From: a virus | Length of the DNA stretch: 64,000 nucleotides | Virus record (IMG/VR): IMGVR_UViG_3300042502_001732 | Span: 79,933-143,932 of that record | Reading direction: 5' to 3' (one strand) | Shown: piece by piece, positions 2,032 through 60,850 of the stretch | Layout: every line of letters begins with the position of its first letter | Numbering within the stretch: position 1 is the first letter of the stretch | The notes under the pieces: generated by a model | Told to the model about the DNA's origin: nothing | The model's input: the letters and a program-made list of their open reading frames with translations, nothing else | Databases searched by the model: none | Position numbers and translations under genes: made by a program

Positions 2032-4095
2032 ATGCGCAAAGATTTTTCAGAATTGTCATTTTTATATGAAAATGTTCTTATAAATGAAATATCTCAAAAA
2101 TATGTGGATGTTATAAAAAAAGCTGCCAATGACCATGTGTTACCATTTGAAAATGTTTTTAACAATAAGTTGAGGATTATACTTCCCATCAAGGGAACTG
2201 AAACATACAATGCTATTTTAAATGATATTTCAAAAATAAAAGATTTTGATCGTTTCGATCCAGAAAAAAAAGAGGTCGTTAGAAAAATAAAACTCGATCC
2301 AAAATATGGCGGGGGAGAGAAAGAACAAAAAATAAACTTGGGAAGAGCGATCAATTCTTTAAAAATTGATCCAGAAACAAAAAAGAAATATTTAAATTGG
2401 TTTGCCAATTACGAATCCAACATACCAGAAATGAATGATCTTAAAAGATTTTCTGTGGTTGTTTCAAGAAGTCCAATTGATGTGTTGAGAATGTCTGATA
2501 TCAGCGATATAGAATCATGTCATAGTCAAGGCGGTGCGTATTTTCAATGTGCGATTCAAGAAGCTATAACAGGCGGGGCTGTGGCTTATGTTGTACACAC
2601 CAGAGATCTTAAAAAATTATCAGACGATGAGTTTCAAAATGAAGAAATATTCGAAGACAAAGAAAGAAACGTCAAAGGAATCGGCGTATGGTCTAGATTA
2701 AGAATAAGAAGATACGAAATAGAAGAAAACAACAATGATATCGGGATTCCAGAAGTCAGAATCTATGGTCGAAAAATACCAGGATTTTATGACACTGTGA
2801 AAAACTTTTTAACAAAATCTCAACAATACAGCGTTGATAATCTTTATAAATTATATAAAAATAAACAACTTAAAAAAACTGGTGGCTCTTATTCAGATTC
2901 CAGCGATAGTCAATTATTCAATAGAATGTACGACACTGATGTTTTTTATGGAAGCATTCGTCACGAAGACAATGATGAAAATGCGGGTAGAGAAGCGCAA
3001 TTCGAAGAAGAATTAGCAGGATTTCAAAACCGTTTCGAGTTTGAACATTGTAATGCGGGTTATAGTATTGATGGAGATGATGATTATGTTTATTATACAG
3101 CGTGGGGAGCAATCAATATAGATCTTGGAGAATATCAAGTGATTGATGATTTTGTAGAATTTGACAGCGAGTATGAGATAAGCCAATTAAAAAAATACAA
3201 CAAAGATTCTCAACACCAATGGGAAAGATCACTGCCATATAATTTTAAAAACAGAAACCAAGAATCCTCAATAAACACTTATAAAAATTTCCTAACAGAT
3301 TTTGAACAATACGATAGCACATCTTTCGTAGAAGACTCGTTGGCTTCGATAAGCATAAAAAGAAATTACAATGAAAAAACGGGAAATTGGGAAAAAAATC
3401 ATTCATCAATGTCGCTGGGAATATTATTCAACAACGAAGAAAGCACAGACGACACTGACGAGTATCTCTCTTTCTTGAGAGAGGTTGACAACATAGATGG
3501 AAACTACGAATCAATCAAAAAAGCATTATTAAAAGCTTTATTGAAAAACGGTTTGATAAAATCAGGACCAGATATGGAAAAATATACCACCATATCAAAA
3601 GAAAAAGAATTTGTAGAAGATATAAAGAACTTTGAATTTGATACGTCAGAAGACGCATTAACAACTGATATATTTTTGGGAAGATACACAGAGCTATCAA
3701 AAGATGTTGCTTACGCAAACATCAGCATGATATTTGGAGAAGCACTTGAAAAATATCTAGACACGTATTACAAATCACCGCAAATCAATACACAGCAAAC
3801 CACATTTGATAAGTTTTTTGAAAACCACTACAACGAAACGCTTGTTAATAAGTATGGAATAGAAAATATCAAATGCAGATACACCACCCAAGCATTCAAC
3901 ACCGAATTATACAACATGAGTTTGGAAATAAAATTCGAAGCATTGAACAGCAAAACCGCGCCAATTATCAAATTCCTAAATGATCACTATGATGATATAA
4001 CCAACATAGCCAAAATGTTTTTCTTAAAACTCGCCAAAATAGAAAACCAGGACACCAAAAGATTACAACAGGTGTATGGTAAGTTATTACAATAA
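2032..4095 (+). CDS. Large hypothetical protein with D-x3-L-x2-LY leader
   Basis: 687-aa ORF; leader MRKDFSELSFLYENVLINE shared with neighbouring genes. Confidence 0.75.
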   Translation: MRKDFSELSFLYENVLINEISQKYVDVIKKAANDHVLPFENVFNNKLRIILPIKGTETYNAILNDISKIKDFDRFDPEKKEVVRKIKLDPKYGGGEKEQKINLGRAINSLKIDPETKKKYLNWFANYESNIPEMNDLKRFSVVVSRSPIDVLRMSDISDIESCHSQGGAYFQCAIQEAITGGAVAYVVHTRDLKKLSDDEFQNEEIFEDKERNVKGIGVWSRLRIRRYEIEENNNDIGIPEVRIYGRKIPGFYDTVKNFLTKSQQYSVDNLYKLYKNKQLKKTGGSYSDSSDSQLFNRMYDTDVFYGSIRHEDNDENAGREAQFEEELAGFQNRFEFEHCNAGYSIDGDDDYVYYTAWGAINIDLGEYQVIDDFVEFDSEYEISQLKKYNKDSQHQWERSLPYNFKNRNQESSINTYKNFLTDFEQYDSTSFVEDSLASISIKRNYNEKTGNWEKNHSSMSLGILFNNEESTDDTDEYLSFLREVDNIDGNYESIKKALLKALLKNGLIKSGPDMEKYTTISKEKEFVEDIKNFEFDTSEDALTTDIFLGRYTELSKDVAYANISMIFGEALEKYLDTYYKSPQINTQQTTFDKFFENHYNETLVNKYGIENIKCRYTTQAFNTELYNMSLEIKFEALNSKTAPIIKFLNDHYDDITNIAKMFFLKLAKIENQDTKRLQQVYGKLLQ

Positions 4096-4506
4096 TCAAC
4101 CTTCCATAACTTCATCTAAATCATAAAAGCTATTTATAAAATTGATATTGGCTTTTTGGATTGGTGTGAATCTGTGTGTAACTTCTTTTTCGTAAAATGT
4201 TTTGTTCTGCGAAAAAACAATTCGAACCCATCCCAAAGAAAAAAGAGTATCGTATACTCCTTTTTTGGAAGAAGTCCCAATACTATCTAAAATTTGTTTT
4301 CCAACGATTTCATGTTGTCCAACACCACCACGCACCACTGCAAAATTACCATGGCGATCCATCCAAAACCCATAAGGTTTGTTCATAGGCAAACGAACAA
4401 TGCTGTTGTGTATTTTCAAGGTGTCTTGATCATCAAAAGCTTTTGTTTTACTTGCTTCTTCAATCATTTCAAGATAAATACTGTTTATATCTAAACGATA
4501 ATTCAT
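4096..4506 (-). CDS. Hypothetical protein (leader family)
   Basis: 136 aa; MNYRLDINSIYLEMIEE leader. Confidence 0.65.
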   Translation of the reverse strand: MNYRLDINSIYLEMIEEASKTKAFDDQDTLKIHNSIVRLPMNKPYGFWMDRHGNFAVVRGGVGQHEIVGKQILDSIGTSSKKGVYDTLFSLGWVRIVFSQNKTFYEKEVTHRFTPIQKANINFINSFYDLDEVMEG

Positions 4507-4514
4507 AATTTTAT

Positions 4515-4988
4515 TTAATATAATTCGTTTTGTATAGAAGATAAGTATTCTCCATCCAGAGTTTGGATTATTTTGGATTGCACAACAACACCAGGATTGA
4601 TGATAATCACCGAAAGGTTTTCGTTTCTAATGTCTCCTTCGCCTGTGTTCTTGTAAAACGCTACATCATAATCACCCAAACCTTCAACATAATCATAACC
4701 GTGATCAGAGCCATCGTCTGGCAACAACTTTGGATACACATCACCCGTTCTAATAATTAGCTCATAAAGATAATATGTGTCATACTTTCCTTCGTCATTG
4801 ATCATATAATCAGCGCGAATCAACGCTTGTTGACGAGTACCACAATGAGATCCCGAAACGTAATCTCGCTTATCACCACGAGCAGAACTACGAAAAACTT
4901 TTAAATATTCCACACCTTCAACGTCTTTAAACTTTGTATTTGCCGTTAATTCTTGAGTGTTATAGAAAGATTCCAAAAAGCTTTTCAT
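4515..4988 (-). CDS. ADP-ribosyltransferase-like protein (ART-PolyVal-like)
   Basis: Start MKSFLESFYN; HCGTRQQALIR and YDVAFYKNTGEG...SVIIINP resemble ART domains of polyvalent proteins. Confidence 0.5.
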   Translation of the reverse strand: MKSFLESFYNTQELTANTKFKDVEGVEYLKVFRSSARGDKRDYVSGSHCGTRQQALIRADYMINDEGKYDTYYLYELIIRTGDVYPKLLPDDGSDHGYDYVEGLGDYDVAFYKNTGEGDIRNENLSVIIINPGVVVQSKIIQTLDGEYLSSIQNELY

Positions 4989-5020
4989 AGGATTATTTAA
5001 TTGACTAAATATTTTAGATA

Positions 5021-5416
5021 ATGAAAAACAGAGATCAACTATTATTGACAAATATATATACAAGTTCTGTTTTGTCAGAAAGTATAACAGCAGCTGTTAA
5101 AAAAATTTCAATTGAAAACCTTTTACCAGATAAAGATAACATGGAAGTGGCTGTTGATTCTCTAAGAAAAGGCATGCGCAGTTCTGATAATAATCCTATA
5201 TCGGTTTATAAAAATAAAAATAAATATATAGTAGCAGACGGACATCATCGCTTGTTGCAATCCATAATCAACGGCGATGAATCCATCAACGCAAAAATCC
5301 TTCACTCAGACACACCAGTATCCACAACAGGAACAATCAAATTAGACTTATTCGACGGCGATTACTATGGACTGGATTCATCTCTAGAAAACGGATGGTT
5401 AATAAAAAGACTATGA
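5021..5416 (+). CDS. ParB/Srx-like domain protein
   Basis: PISV...YIVADGHHRL motif; leader MKNRDQLLLTNIY. Confidence 0.7.
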   Translation: MKNRDQLLLTNIYTSSVLSESITAAVKKISIENLLPDKDNMEVAVDSLRKGMRSSDNNPISVYKNKNKYIVADGHHRLLQSIINGDESINAKILHSDTPVSTTGTIKLDLFDGDYYGLDSSLENGWLIKRL

Positions 5417-19682: not shown

Positions 19683-19778
19683 AAATGTAATTTAGATGAG
19701 ATGATTGTATTTTAGTTTTTTATTAGAATTTTTTTATAAAAGATTATGAATCTATTCATAATATGGATAAATAATAAT

Positions 19779-20138
19779 ATGAAATGTTTAATTTGTGAGA
19801 AATCATTAGAGGGAAGACAGAAAAAATTTTGTAGTAGTAAATGTAAAAGTATGTTAGCTAATAATAAATTGCAAAATTATCAAGCACAGCAAACAAGGGG
19901 CAAGATAAGAAAAAAAAAGTTAATCGAAATGAAAGGAGGCTGTTGTGAAAAATGCGGTTATAATAAAAGTTTAGCAGCATTGTCTTTTCATCATTTGAAT
20001 CCAAATCTTAAAAAATTTCATTTAGATATTAGAAATCTTTCCAATAGGAAGTGGGAAATGATTATTGAAGAATTTAATGAATGTGAATTGTTGTGTTTTA
20101 ATTGTCATATGGAATTACATCATGGTTGCGAATGGTAG
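19779..20138 (+). CDS. Free-standing HNH endonuclease
   Basis: MKCLICE..KFCSSKC; CEKCGY..LSFHH..CELLCFNCHMELH; stop overlaps the tRNA 3' end. Confidence 0.85.
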   Translation: MKCLICEKSLEGRQKKFCSSKCKSMLANNKLQNYQAQQTRGKIRKKKLIEMKGGCCEKCGYNKSLAALSFHHLNPNLKKFHLDIRNLSNRKWEMIIEEFNECELLCFNCHMELHHGCEW

Positions 20139-20415
20139 GGGTGGAGGGATTCGAACCCCCACTCAATCGATTATGCTTACCACTATAGTTTTCACTACCC
20201 TTTCGGTTTGTGGTCTGGACTATCCCTTAATCTTCAGCATTACCTGTTAAGACTGAACTATTATAGTCTCTGCACGTCTCTCTTTCGAGATTTCGCTCAA
20301 GATTGGCATCAGCATTACCTGTTAAGCGTTCCTTGAATTTAAGTTCTGCTAACTTATTATTTCTAACAAGAAGACCCGTTAAAGTCGACTGCTTTGACCA
20401 TTAAGCTACACCCCT
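20133..20415 (-). tRNA. tRNA(CAU), probably Ile2, interrupted by a group I intron
   Basis: Exons 20383-20415 and 20133-20175 splice to AGGGGTG...GTCGA-CT-CAT-AA-TCGAT...CACCCCT-A-CCA. Confidence 0.9.
20176..20382 (-). mobile_element. 207-nt group I intron (IC3-like), no ORF
   Basis: Follows exon U33, ends in G; P1 GACU/GGUC with U-G wobble; AAATTC..GAA, GCAGAGACTA and GATAGTCCA core motifs. Confidence 0.88.
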
Positions 20416-21871
20416 TTATATAAAATTGAACAGCCTTTTATTGACTTGCTTAGGTCAGATTGCCGATATTATCGGAGTCTGTATTGATTTGTTTCGATGT
20501 TGACATCGACAAGATTGCGCTTTTCAAGAGCAAGAATAATGCGCTTGGCGTTCTTATCAAAAGAATGCCATCCATCAATCTTACTGATGAATGCAAACGC
20601 TTCTCTTTGATGTTTGCCCATCTTTTTAATGTTTGTTTCCATATTATTGCGTTTTTTGCTGTTATCGGTGAATCATCATCACCGCCGACTAATTTAAGAT
20701 ACCAACAATTTTCACTTTGTCAACATCTTGTCCCATAAGATAATCTAGTTTTTTATTAATTATTCTGAAAACATGCTGTTGTCGTTTTCGTATTCATCGG
20801 AAGAAAAAGTCTTTCTTAAAACTATTTCTGTAATATATTTGTCACACAGATGATTGATATAATCATCAAATTCTTTATCATTCAGAAAACCAACAGCCAC
20901 ATGCCCATTGGCAAGCATAACTTTTTCTATTGGTTTTTTATTATACATTATATAAACTTTTTATCAAGCGAATTCTACTTCGATTTCGTGTCCTGTTTCT
21001 GATTTGGTTTGTCCATCTAGAACAAGATAGATTGCGGCGTGGTATTTATCTTCATCAATATCATAGAAAAAGTTTAAATCAACAAATTCATTTATTACAT
21101 GCCACTCATCTTCTTCATGAGCGCGTTTAATTGTATACTGACCTTCTTGTGTGTCAAGAATAAGTTCTTGTTCTTTGACAATAAGTTTCATTTGTTTCTT
21201 TATTAGATGTGTTTAAGAACTTTTCCTACCATTCGAATAGCAACGATGAATTTTACCATCATCACCCGTTTTAAATAAAATCCATTCTCCTTTATTATGT
21301 TTTTGTTTAAGATAGTCTTTAACCCATTTAGGAAAATCTGTAAAACTATCAGCAGTCTTTATTTTATGTTCAAATGGAGTAGCGATAATACAAACATACC
21401 TAGCGGGTTTCATTTGTTTCTGTATTTACGGAGAAGTTGCTCGTCTGTCATGCGGGTAGTCAAGAATGTCTGGTGGAAAGTGACAGGGATGTTGCCATAC
21501 TCACCATCATCATGGATAAGAGTGTCGCCATTGTAGATATCAAAATCTGCACCCCAATAACTTTCATTAATAACTACTGGTGGGAATCTCTCACCATCAA
21601 TATTTGAGGTGATATTATGCTCAATGACTACTCGTCTTTTAGGATTAAAAAGATTAAAAATATTAAAAAACATATTATTAGTATTGGTTGTTGTGTTTAT
21701 CCATGATAGCGTTGAACCTCTCTTGAAATATATTTGAGGAATCATCAAATAGACTAATATCGGGTTTGAGTGAATTGATTGTTACTTGAGTGAGTTCTGA
21801 AAGATCCCGAATAGTTGCGAGCAATTGCTCAATTGTTTGTTCCACAGTATCCATATTATTTATTATTAGAT

Positions 21872-40815: not shown

Positions 40816-41142
40816 TGGTGGATGTGTGGAGGATCGAACTCCAGTCCATGACTTCTCGGCAATATACTTCTACAATTTATTGATTGATGTTAGGACAATC
40901 ACAACCTAGATTGTTGTCGAGCAATCCCGCATCAATATTCGAATCGATGAGTCTATTATATTTTCGATATACAACTATCCGACCCTACTCTGTACCAACG
41001 CATGTTATCGGAGTTGATGCGTTGGTGCGGTTATGCCGCGAGAGCTAGTGTATCTTTTTCGTTTTTCTCTTGCACTTAGAGTCGTGCAGACTGTGCATTG
41101 CATATATTGCTTCAAATGTCATGTCGAAACCATGTCACACCC
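40816..41142 (-). ncRNA. ssrA: tmRNA
   Basis: GGGTGTG/CACATCC-ACCA with G3-U70; D-loop GGTTTCGAC; tag frame ...EKDTLALAA-stop. Confidence 0.9.
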
Positions 41143-51004: not shown

Positions 51005-51080
51005 TGGTAGGCCCGCTCGGATTCGAACCGAGGGTCACCCGATTATGAGTCGGACGCTTTCACCGCTAAGCTACGAGCCT
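51005..51080 (-). tRNA. tRNA(CAU), probably Ile2
   Basis: TCCGA-CT-CAT-AA-TCGGG; AGGCTCG/CGGGCCT acceptor. Confidence 0.88.
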
Positions 51081-51090
51081 TTATAGAAAT

Positions 51091-51615
51091 TTAGTTCTTA
51101 GAAATATTTCGATTTTTTAAAGAATTTGAAATTTTTTGTTTTGTTTCTTCGCTCATCGGCTTTCTTAATTTTGCTGCTTTCGAAATATTTTGCTTTGCAG
51201 TTTCACTAAGTTTTCTACCTTTTGATGAAGAACCACCACGTTTTCCAGCATCAATAAATTTTTGTTTATTATCACTGGAATTTAAAGTTTTTTTAATTTG
51301 TGAAATAGTTTCATTTGAATGAGATTTGCCTTTAAAATGTGATCCACCTTCACCGCCGACTCCCATGTTATAAGTGTCCTTGCAATTTACAAATTCTTCA
51401 GTAATCAATTCTCTTTCTTTTGCATTCATCTCCTCTTCTGTTTGGAAAATAAACAATATTTCTTTTTGAAAATTTTCCTTACCATATTTTAATATAGCTT
51501 CCTTGATTGCCTTTCCGGAACCATAATACGAATCATTTGGATTAGCAGTTTGATGTTTACCTATATAAAATTTATTATTGATTAGATTTGTAGTTTTATA
51601 GATTGTATAGAACAT
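51091..51615 (-). CDS. GIY-YIG (Seg-like) homing endonuclease with NUMOD3-like repeats
   Basis: YTIYKTTNLINNKFYIGKH, YYGSG, HSNETI/LSETAK/MSEETK; start MFYTIY after TATAAATA at 51621. Confidence 0.88.
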   Translation of the reverse strand: MFYTIYKTTNLINNKFYIGKHQTANPNDSYYGSGKAIKEAILKYGKENFQKEILFIFQTEEEMNAKERELITEEFVNCKDTYNMGVGGEGGSHFKGKSHSNETISQIKKTLNSSDNKQKFIDAGKRGGSSSKGRKLSETAKQNISKAAKLRKPMSEETKQKISNSLKNRNISKN

Positions 51616-51635
51616 AATTCTATTTATACAATCAT

Positions 51636-53962: not shown

Positions 53963-54065
53963 TAGACAATGTAGATGGAATCGAACCATCGCCTCGGCGT
54001 TGTCGCCTATCCTATCGGACAAGAAACCCTTTGCTTGGGGCGTGCTACCACTACACTATACATTG
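53963..54065 (-). ncRNA. tRNA-like RNA with expanded anticodon/variable region
   Basis: Perfect CAATGTA/TACATTG acceptor, normal D- and T-arms, about 50-nt centre. Confidence 0.6.
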
Positions 54066-55236: not shown

Positions 55237-55316
55237 TGGTTGCGGGGGTGGGAGTCGAACCCACACCGAAGCCTAGCTTATGAGACTAGTTCAGCACCAC
55301 TACTGACTGCCCCGCG
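55237..55316 (-). tRNA. tRNA-Met(CAU), initiator-like
   Basis: C1-A72 mismatch (CGCGGGG/CCCCGCA); CTAGT-CT-CAT-AA-GCTAG. Confidence 0.8.
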
Positions 55317-57549: not shown

Positions 57550-57645
57550 TGGTACTAGAGGTGGGACTCGAACCCACATACGGCTCGATGACCGATTCTA
57601 CCCCCTTATAAAGAAGGACCTTTAACCAATTCAGGACACTCTAGC
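57550..57645 (-). tRNA. tRNA(UAU), Ile anticodon, with 23-nt variable arm
   Basis: GCTAGAG/CTCTAGT-A-CCA; CCTTC-TT-TAT-AA-GGGGG; V = TAGAATCGGTCATCGAGCCGTAT. Confidence 0.8.
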
Positions 57646-60409: not shown

Positions 60410-60850
60410 AAATTGTTTTTTGAAAGTGGTGAGCAGTTTTAAGAGATGCTCAACTCTCTAGAGCGGTTTAACGAGTGCCCGAAGCTCAAAGCTTTTTAAA
60501 AGATGTTCAACTCTTGTGATTACCAACTACCGTTCATGGTTTGGATAAAGATGACGAACCAAACTGCTGCATTGATTCCGATGAAAATTCCTAATGTTTC
60601 TTTCATATTGTGTTGTGTTGCTTACATGGTCATTATACACTAAAATGCAGAGAAAGTACACAACTTTTTTCAAAAAAGTGAAAAAAGGCCCCGAAGTTAG
60701 GCCCCGTATAGAGAAATCTAGTGCTCCCAAGGTCTAAAAATGTCAAATTTACGACTTTTTATGCAAAAAATACCCACCAAAGTGTGCATCGTTGAGAGGC
60801 ATGGTGGGTCTGCTCGAGAGTTATATTTGACAAAAATCAAAAGAGTTTAT

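Follow-up and report, generated by a model that had tools for sequence, protein, structure and literature searches.

An IC3-type group I intron in a phage tRNA(CAU) gene beside a free-standing HNH endonuclease gene, with a proposal for joint homing

The stretch of DNA analysed here (64,000 nt, hereafter 'the window', to which all coordinates refer unless another contig is named) is the last 64 kb of the 143.9-kb IMG/VR virus record IMGVR_UViG_3300042502_001732. The phage is T4-like, comes from freshwater, is uncultured, and encodes a tmRNA and over 20 tRNAs. Reading of its minus strand between positions 20415 and 20133 reveals a tRNA(CAU) gene in two pieces, interrupted after U33. The 33-nt 5' exon (20383–20415) comprises the acceptor strand, the D arm and the 5' strand of the anticodon stem and ends ...GUCGA-CU (C32 U33), while the 43-nt 3' exon (20133–20175) opens with CAUAAUCGAU (CAUAA-UCGAU), supplies the CAU anticodon, A37, A38, the 3' strand of the anticodon stem, the T arm and the acceptor strand, and closes with an encoded ACCA. 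The exons are separated by a group I intron of 207 nt (20176–20382, minus strand; IC3 type, setting '2Ug'), supported by Rfam family RF00028, a family alignment and pair counts. A gene for a free-standing HNH endonuclease of 119 residues (19779–20138, plus strand; translation from an in-frame ATG further upstream, at 19746, would yield 130 residues) converges on the tRNA gene, with which it shares its final 6 nt at the tRNA 3' end: its last codon, TGG (20133–20135), is the complement of the tRNA CCA and is followed by the stop codon TAG (20136–20138). An initial annotation, made from the sequence alone, had described an ORF-less intron of 207 nt after U33 of a tRNA(CAU) and a convergent HNH gene ending on the tRNA CCA, and both are indeed present.

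The exon-exon junction is proved by an intron-less allele on another viral contig (L006, 317–244, minus strand), which reads GTCGACT-CATAATCGAT and thus has exactly the predicted junction. Its exons are ∼97% identical to those of the window (32 of 33 nt in the 5' exon; 97.6% over 41 nt in the 3' exon), and it lacks both the intron and the HNH gene. Contig L005 also has this intron and this HNH gene, differing in a single base over 283 nt, located in a loop; GGTCAAAGC in the D loop and GAGTGGGGGTT at the T arm are diagnostic of the window allele. At least 17 metagenome runs of lake or freshwater origin, dated 2016 to 2024, contain the locus in identical form, and many of these runs are possibly sources of this assembly. 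Plain ARAGORN does not call the split tRNA gene; with introns allowed, the program recovers the span 20133–20415 with the splice site misplaced and the anticodon called 'stop'. The encoded tRNA is not an initiator: positions 1 and 72 form an A1-U72 pair, and the anticodon stem lacks three consecutive G-C pairs. It has a G27·U43 pair, as in E. coli tRNA-Ile2, and may be either an elongator tRNA-Met or a lysidine-type tRNA-Ile2. The phage has two further tRNA(CAU) genes (51005–51080 and 55237–55316).

The intron begins with UUAACGGGUC and finishes with GGUAAG, its final base being the omega-G (G207) at 20176, as the initial annotation had noted; intron positions convert to window coordinates by subtraction from 20383. 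P1 is formed by exon G30-A31-C32-U33 and intron G7-G8-U9-C10, that is, by the exon sequence GACU and an internal guide sequence GGUC (20373–20376, minus strand) read from the sequence. The U-G wobble expected at the 5' splice site is found between U33 (20383) and G7 (20376). P1 thus has 4 bp and is closed by a 6-nt loop, and no clear P10 is seen; in related introns that bear an HNH gene, an equivalent GG(U/C) guide is retained 3' of the ORF. In intron numbering, the remaining layout comprises the 3' strand of P1 (7–10), P2 (13–30), P3 (37–41/124–128), P4 (47–52/81–86), P5 (56–77), P6 (87–89/107–109), P6a (93–104), P7 (113–119/161–166), P8 (132–151), P9 (169–173/200–204), P9a (177–184) and P9b (186–197), and represents a P1-to-P9 architecture without a P5abc extension in which P2, P6a and the two P9 hairpins are capped by GAAA loops. 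The sense strand of the intron holds no ORF of 40 or more codons.

A search with group I models, proposed along with the initial annotation, returned a match to the full RF00028 model at 20397–20194 with 47.6 bits (E 6.6e-11 on 801 nt; gathering score 50), so that the intron is missed when Rfam is run at gathering thresholds; the Rfam group I seed is without bacterial introns, and cut-offs of ∼18–20 bits have been used elsewhere (Williams 2020, preprint). We then counted pairs for the helices read in the window sequence (47 pairs) on an alignment (A1) of 11 related phage tRNA introns. Paired cells amount to 90.5%, compared with 72.5% in shuffles, none of 500 of which reached the observed value, and with 32–42% when the partners were slid. 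As many as 29 of the 47 pairs are changed on both sides, including all five of P3, all four of P6a and all four of P9b, with P7 being nearly invariant (five of its six pairs never vary). The minimum-free-energy fold of the intron was uninformative for a pseudoknotted ribozyme, yielding a z-score of only −1.75 with the 17-nt repeats discussed below mispaired, and was set aside. Judged by its sequence, the intron is a group I ribozyme with every sequence and structural hallmark of its class, and its predicted self-splicing to restore a working tRNA is well supported by the anatomy and by comparison.

The duplicated element pointed out in the initial annotation proved to be a 17-mer, TTAACAGGTAATGCTGA, present twice on the minus strand (20325–20309 and 20250–20234). 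The first copy (20309–20325) constitutes the P5 hairpin, in which UU, a bulged AA and CAG are followed by the loop GUAAUG and by CUG-A, and the second (20234–20250) forms the same module as the P8 hairpin. Exact copies of the 17-mer turned up on more than 114 viral contigs; the hairpin module occupies P5 in most family members and, across the family, P5, P8 or both. Since L9-P5 and L2-P8 are the classical tetraloop-receptor contacts of group I introns (PMC11571812), the duplicate is best read as a single docking module that is probably used twice, providing tetraloop receptors in both P5 and P8.

BLAST searches and a profile built from the 11 introns revealed that the contigs with the 17-mer hold group I introns, and that 25 of 42 profile hits in the viral loci fetched lie inside split tRNA genes. 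The hosts comprise tRNA-Leu(UAA), tRNA-Arg(UCU), tRNA-Lys(UUU), tRNA-Ser(UGA), tRNA-Asn(GUU), a UCA tRNA and CAU tRNAs, and the intron 3' end is found beside various tRNA exons in at least 120 metagenome contigs. The 3' end of the window intron is nearly identical in introns of tRNA-Leu(UAA) (L238) and of another tRNA (L035), which suggests that the lineage moves between tRNA genes. Family introns are 186–237 nt long, and two of the shorter ones reside in a tRNA-Ser(UGA) (L094:334–519, plus strand, 186 nt) and a tRNA-Lys(UUU) (L093:4820–5017, plus strand, 198 nt). Among natural self-splicing group I introns, that of Azoarcus (∼205 nt) is cited as the smallest; the 186-nt and 198-nt introns may thus be smaller. 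On the 281-kb viral contig L093, genes for tRNA-Arg(UCU), tRNA-Leu(UAA) and tRNA-Lys(UUU) are all split by introns of this family within 1.6 kb (3526–5058). In 12 metagenome contigs (L409, L439, L446, L447, L458, L463 and six further ones) the exon CAAAACCGT adjoins the intron 3' end, and a viral contig found with the profile (L065) has its intron at a CUU|CAAA split; these sequences are compatible with a UGA-reading tRNA, anticodon UCA, that is interrupted after U34, and a possible identity of such a tRNA is an opal suppressor or a tryptophan tRNA of genetic code 4. The CAU-tRNA intron of L457 carries an extra insert in the P9 region with a T-arm-like GGAGTTCGACTCTCC hairpin (in the 260 nt preceding the minus-strand match at 1541).

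The family extends into bacteria. A core 18-mer, GGTGTAGAGACTAGACGG, is present in at least 120 bacterial genomes and is common to family members and to introns at the tRNA-Leu.3Ug, Ile2.5Ug and Arg.5Ug settings. ARAGORN placed 112 bacterial 18-mer loci in split tRNA (16 gave no valid split). Among these 112, tRNA-Leu(UAA) split as CUU|AAAA accounts for 65, tRNA(CAU) split as CU|CAUAA, as in the window, for nine, several of them initiator-like, and CUCAU|AA, the setting of Azoarcus, for five, with most other valid U/G splits located in CCU, UCU or GGU anticodon loops before the final AA and thus resembling Arg.5Ug. An nhmmer comparison of the window intron with the bacterial loci yielded 36 hits, aligning positions 7–203 with an E-value of 5.9e-9. 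Leu.3Ug, Arg.5Ug, fMet.2Ug and Ile2.5Ug represent four classical settings, all of subgroup IC3 (Williams 2020, preprint). Because the 18-mer connects its family, and nhmmer homology the window intron by itself, to bacterial introns at settings so classed, we conclude from these sequence relationships that it is a tRNA intron of the IC3 type, inserted at '2Ug', here in a non-initiator tRNA(CAU). The resemblance in size and core to IC3 tRNA introns stated in the initial annotation is thereby borne out: the intron is of the near-minimal, ORF-less IC3 tRNA type and occupies the classical tRNA-fMet position. Phage GenBank records gave only short core matches, none in an annotated tRNA; they fall in helicase-gene introns of crAss-like phages, which carry GIY-YIG genes, and in a Vibrio phage.

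Two well-known introns are instructive for comparison. The cyanobacterial tRNA-fMet intron (fMet.2Ug, IC3; in Synechocystis with the endonuclease I-Ssp6803I) agrees with that of the window in loop position (CU/intron/CAUAA), class and core, but the host of the latter is a phage and its tRNA is not an initiator. I-Ssp6803I is a PD-(D/E)XK enzyme; the window enzyme, in contrast to the Synechocystis system, belongs to the HNH type and is encoded outside the intron (in its relatives, antisense inside it). The Azoarcus tRNA-Ile intron likewise agrees in the absence of an ORF, in a P2-to-P9 helix set without P5abc, in its several GAAA loops, in having paired modules in P5 and P8 (putative docking sites in the window intron) and, nearly, in size, and betaproteobacterial introns at the Azoarcus setting in our bacterial sample share the core 18-mer of the family. 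It is, however, inserted after U36 and not after U33, no endonuclease is associated with it, and its P5 and P8 modules represent the 11-nt receptor, whereas those of the window are UUAAC...GA hairpins.

The protein encoded by the converging gene exhibits a CxxC...CxxxC zinc ribbon near its N-terminus, while the C-terminal part contains an HNH motif with CxxC/CxxC. It matches PHROG family phrog_2255 (E 2.9e-20), which confirms its earlier assignment as an HNH protein, and scores 20.9 bits against the Pfam HNH family PF01844 (cut-off 21.4). We found 25 homologues, all of them metagenomic proteins, and the pattern CEKCGY...FHHLNP...SNR...CFNCH...H is kept in the homologue sequences compared. Inspection of their contigs, together with tBLASTn of all fetched loci, revealed three arrangements. 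(i) In six lineages (L229/230, L231/232, L233/234, L238, L239/240 and L241/242) an HNH gene encoding a protein 62–71% identical to that of the window is free-standing and converges with an uninterrupted tRNA(CAU) gene at the latter's 3' end; L229 and L238 exhibit the same 6-nt overlap as the window and likewise a C-terminal ...HHGCEW. (ii) In at least six loci (L109, L243/244, L245, L389, L436 and L402, to which come the bacterial-binned contigs L259 and L313) the gene, with 51–57% identity, lies antisense within a group I intron at U33/C34 of a tRNA(CAU), the ORF occupying the P1 loop, with the 5' splice site on one side of it and the guide sequence on the other. (iii) Remoter members follow an intron-less tRNA(CAU) in the same orientation (L134/L178; L228, a 636-kb phage) or neighbour a tRNA-Tyr. 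The combination of a free-standing HNH gene with an ORF-less intron is seen only in one lineage, that of the window and L005, and ORF-less CAU introns also occur without a nearby HNH gene (L461, L377, L459). In the bacterial metagenome-assembled genome contig L313 (582–918), the HNH gene within a 622-nt tRNA(CAU) intron is frameshifted over two reading frames and is decaying. The C-termini of two homologues, P0020 (...RRDSNPDLGLI) and P0021 (...GFEPATLQL), resemble the antisense translation of a tRNA T arm, so that these ORFs probably run into a converging tRNA gene with a geometry like that of the window.

The distribution of the HNH gene is sporadic. The spliced anticodon arm of the window tRNA, AGTCGACTCATAATCGATTGAG (22 nt), is uninterrupted in 106 viral contigs, only two of which hold a distant HNH homologue, and the gene is absent from 103 of 105 contigs with this arm. 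From the gene neighbourhoods, a link of the HNH family to tRNA(CAU) genes, and to introns interrupting them at U33/C34, is evident; because homologues with 51–57% identity sit in introns at the same site of the same tRNA, the HNH and intron families are truly linked. In the HNH tree, the proteins of the first arrangement form a supported clade (95/88) outside which the window protein falls.

As regards transcription, a late-promoter-like TAAATA box (19768–19773, plus strand) lies 5 nt before the HNH start codon. The pattern TAAATA-N4-7-ATG occurs 23 times in the window compared with 7.3 expected, a number reached by none of 100 shuffles, and the box preceding the ATG suggests that the HNH gene is expressed late, from the strand opposite to the tRNA. 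A TAAATA-N5-ATG box (51613–51626, minus strand) also precedes the GIY-YIG gene of another element of this genome, cassette 1, so that both may be late genes. On the minus strand, a 57-residue ORF (20469–20642) lies upstream of the tRNA in one transcription unit with it. A promoter-type repeat (family D1; 20740–20761, minus strand) opens the unit of the 57-residue ORF, the split tRNA and the HNH gene, and the next copy (19707–19728) opens the following unit, the two copies thus bounding the tRNA unit. Contigs L367–L374 (with the flanking 87-residue ORF) and L035 (with the 57-residue ORF) were considered as a clean empty site, since they lack tRNA, intron and HNH gene, and were rejected because neighbouring genes differ; the comparison shows an optional unit rather than a precise insertion scar. 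Elsewhere in the window and all on the minus strand, three tRNA calls are long, namely Ile(UAU) (57550–57645, 96 nt), Met(CAU) (55237–55316, 80 nt) and Asp(GUC) (53965–54065), the last being made only with a 12-nt 'intron'. The tmRNA is located at 40816–41142 (minus strand; RF00023, 84.2 bits, full length), and a match to the abiF RNA motif is found at 60772–60808 (minus strand; RF03085, 47.1 bits compared with a gathering score of 37).

One tRNA gene of the window thus holds an ORF-less intron and borders on a free-standing HNH gene, and it is tempting to ask whether the two cooperate. We propose the following scheme. A pre-tRNA would be made from the early-type promoter of the unit, along with the 57-residue ORF. 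Exon GACU and intron GGUC would form P1, guanosine would attack after U33, and the exons would be joined to GUCGACU-CAUAAUCG, giving a CUCAUAA loop, with the 17-nt P5 and P8 hairpins presumably docking the GAAA loops L9 and L2 as in other IC3 introns. The HNH gene would be expressed late from the opposite strand, and in mixed infections its product would cut HNH-less tRNA(CAU) loci of related phages; repair would then carry over both the HNH gene and the neighbouring tRNA gene with its intron, a pathway termed 'trans' or 'collaborative' homing. In its own genome, the intron might split the HNH recognition site, while self-splicing would render the insertion harmless. An intron-borne HNH enzyme must act near the insertion site to home, and by virtue of its homology to the intron-borne members the window enzyme plausibly recognises tRNA(CAU) DNA. 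Taken as a whole, that is, a self-splicing IC3-type intron at U33/C34 of a phage tRNA(CAU) beside a free-standing HNH homing endonuclease of a tRNA(CAU)-specialised family, together with the proposed homing, this reading appears to us about evenly poised between right and wrong; its last element, collaborative homing of intron and HNH gene, is plausible but unproven.

Several observations weigh against it. The RF00028 score is slightly below the gathering score. The spliced joint was not seen in contigs from three metatranscriptome runs, which are assembled contigs holding only small parts of the stretch, the other pieces being sibling introns of other tRNAs; one RNA-library contig (20641–20386) covers the 57-residue ORF and the 5' exon and, ending 3 nt short of the splice site, provides weak evidence. 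The state in which a free-standing HNH gene accompanies an intron is confined to one lineage (the window and L005). In a poorly resolved intron tree, CAU introns do not group together and may or may not share one origin, and the HNH tree does not discriminate between a position of the window enzyme closer to the intron-borne and one closer to the free-standing forms. Six lineages keep the HNH gene beside an intron-less tRNA(CAU), and self-immunity of the HNH gene consequently does not need the intron. Moreover, the intron-less tRNA of L241 is identical to the exon junction of the window over 15 nt (TCGACTCATAATCGA) and yet coexists with an HNH gene, which disfavours simple target-site immunity and, provided that the two enzymes do not differ in specificity, sits badly with a recognition sequence centred on U33/C34. 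Immunity through anticodon-stem substitutions as a general rule was also considered: it fits L229/L238, L231, L233 and L239, and L241 breaks it. The window keeps the widespread 22-nt arm, and most intron-less tRNAs adjacent to an HNH gene differ in the anticodon stem; a protective role of the intron would fit this pattern, although, in view of L241, immunity by target disruption is only conjectural.

The initial annotation had also proposed that the insertion point of the intron matches the break point of cassette 1, giving two solutions at one target. The positional coincidence is real, in that the 5' tRNA remnant of cassette 1 ends ...GGGGTCT, that is, after U33. A recombination boundary is, however, not necessarily a cleavage site; the boundary of cassette 1 lies in a different tRNA(CAU), one destroyed by the cassette, and its 3' boundary is far off, in the T arm/acceptor region.

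The main rival explanation is that intron and HNH gene are independent neighbours, the enzyme targeting the 3' end or flank of the tRNA, at which its gene is inserted, or the T arm, and the intron having arrived separately by recombination with another intron-bearing tRNA gene or by transposition from one. We regard this as possible but doubtful. It would account directly for the close homologues beside intron-less tRNA(CAU) genes in six lineages, for the coexistence in L241 of the HNH gene and the same 15 nt, and for the ORF-less CAU introns that have no HNH gene nearby. Compared with the HNH-less L006, the HNH cassette starts directly after the discriminator and C74, which is typical of a site-disrupting insertion, and the near-identical intron 3' ends in the tRNA-Leu(UAA) intron of L238 and in L035 suggest that the intron moves between tRNA genes. 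The HNH homologues inside introns at exactly U33/C34 in at least six loci argue against mere neighbourhood, because those enzymes must act there. Likewise, the chance of an unrelated HNH gene landing 43 nt from such an intron is small, and within the convergent group only the window keeps the full 22-nt AGTCGACTCATAATCGATTGAG arm (15 nt in L241) and only the window has an intron.

It is also conceivable, though in our view unlikely, that the locus represents a transient intermediate of a homing cycle and not a partnership: the intron would have lost or moved out the HNH gene of its P1 loop, or the HNH gene would be about to invade it. One HNH family indeed exhibits, at one site, all three states (free without intron, free with an ORF-less intron, and intron-borne), the frameshifted gene of L313 demonstrates that decay occurs, and the window HNH protein lies outside the well-supported free-standing clade. 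However, the P1 loop of the window intron has only 6 nt with no remnant of an ORF, and the CAU introns that bear an HNH gene (53–62% identity) resemble it no more than introns of other tRNAs do; the HNH and intron trees are too weakly resolved to order the arrangements in time, and hence to give a direction. Finally, it appears most improbable that the interrupted tRNA gene is dead, with an intron that no longer splices, and that its role falls to the two further tRNA(CAU) genes, since the redundancy of CAU tRNAs, the unseen spliced joint and a P1 of only 4 bp without a clear P10 are set against the intact state of every core helix, the U·G pair and the terminal G, exons 97% identical to intact intron-less alleles, a lone loop difference over 283 nt in L005, the normality of a short P1 in tRNA introns, and a locus unchanged in metagenomes from 2016 to 2024.

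Returning to the proposed homing of intron and HNH gene, the scheme has precedents. In collaborative homing, a free-standing endonuclease and an ORF-less intron share one target, as described for cyanophage psbA/F-CphI and for T-even phages (PMC3984707), and, as in those systems, relatives of the window lack one or both elements. In contrast to them, the target in the window is a tRNA gene and not a protein-coding gene, the enzyme family also occurs antisense inside the same type of intron, and cleavage at the insertion site is putative. SegB of T4/T6 (PMC2330249) is, like the window HNH protein, a free-standing phage homing endonuclease located among tRNA genes, and presumably spreads by cutting the tRNA region of related phages; it is, however, a GIY-YIG enzyme and not an HNH enzyme, comes without an intron and is not tied to one tRNA species. 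A 2014 review placed all phage introns in protein-coding genes despite the many tRNA genes of phages (PMC3984707). 'Enigmatic' introns in tRNA genes of Lak megaphages were later described, with the statement that phage tRNA introns were previously unreported (Devoto et al. 2019; PMC6784885); they share with the window intron the location in phage tRNA genes but were not classified as group I, whereas the window intron clearly belongs to it. No paper on group I introns in phage tRNA genes was found in the literature searched. Hence, the kinds of element are known (an IC3 tRNA intron; a free-standing endonuclease with an ORF-less intron), and it is the setting that appears to be new.

One may go further and speculate that one HNH family and one intron family at U33/C34 exhibit the three steps by which a mobile group I intron has been proposed to arise, namely an HNH gene by its uninterrupted target, an HNH gene by an ORF-less intron and an HNH gene antisense in the P1 loop of the intron. 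The window would then be the natural intermediate, the anticodon loop of phage tRNA(CAU) genes would be contested within one genome by at least two nuclease families, the GIY-YIG cassettes and this HNH, and the ribozyme would serve as an immunity device. We consider this extended view tentative and on balance rather improbable.

The intron family links the tRNA-intron pools of phages and bacteria and thereby points to a route for lateral spread. With a protein of 119 residues, introns of 186–237 nt and a defined target, the HNH family provides a natural series for the study of how an endonuclease and a ribozyme are united. Finally, the window adds a second way, within one genome, in which selfish nucleases can occupy an RNA gene without destroying its function.

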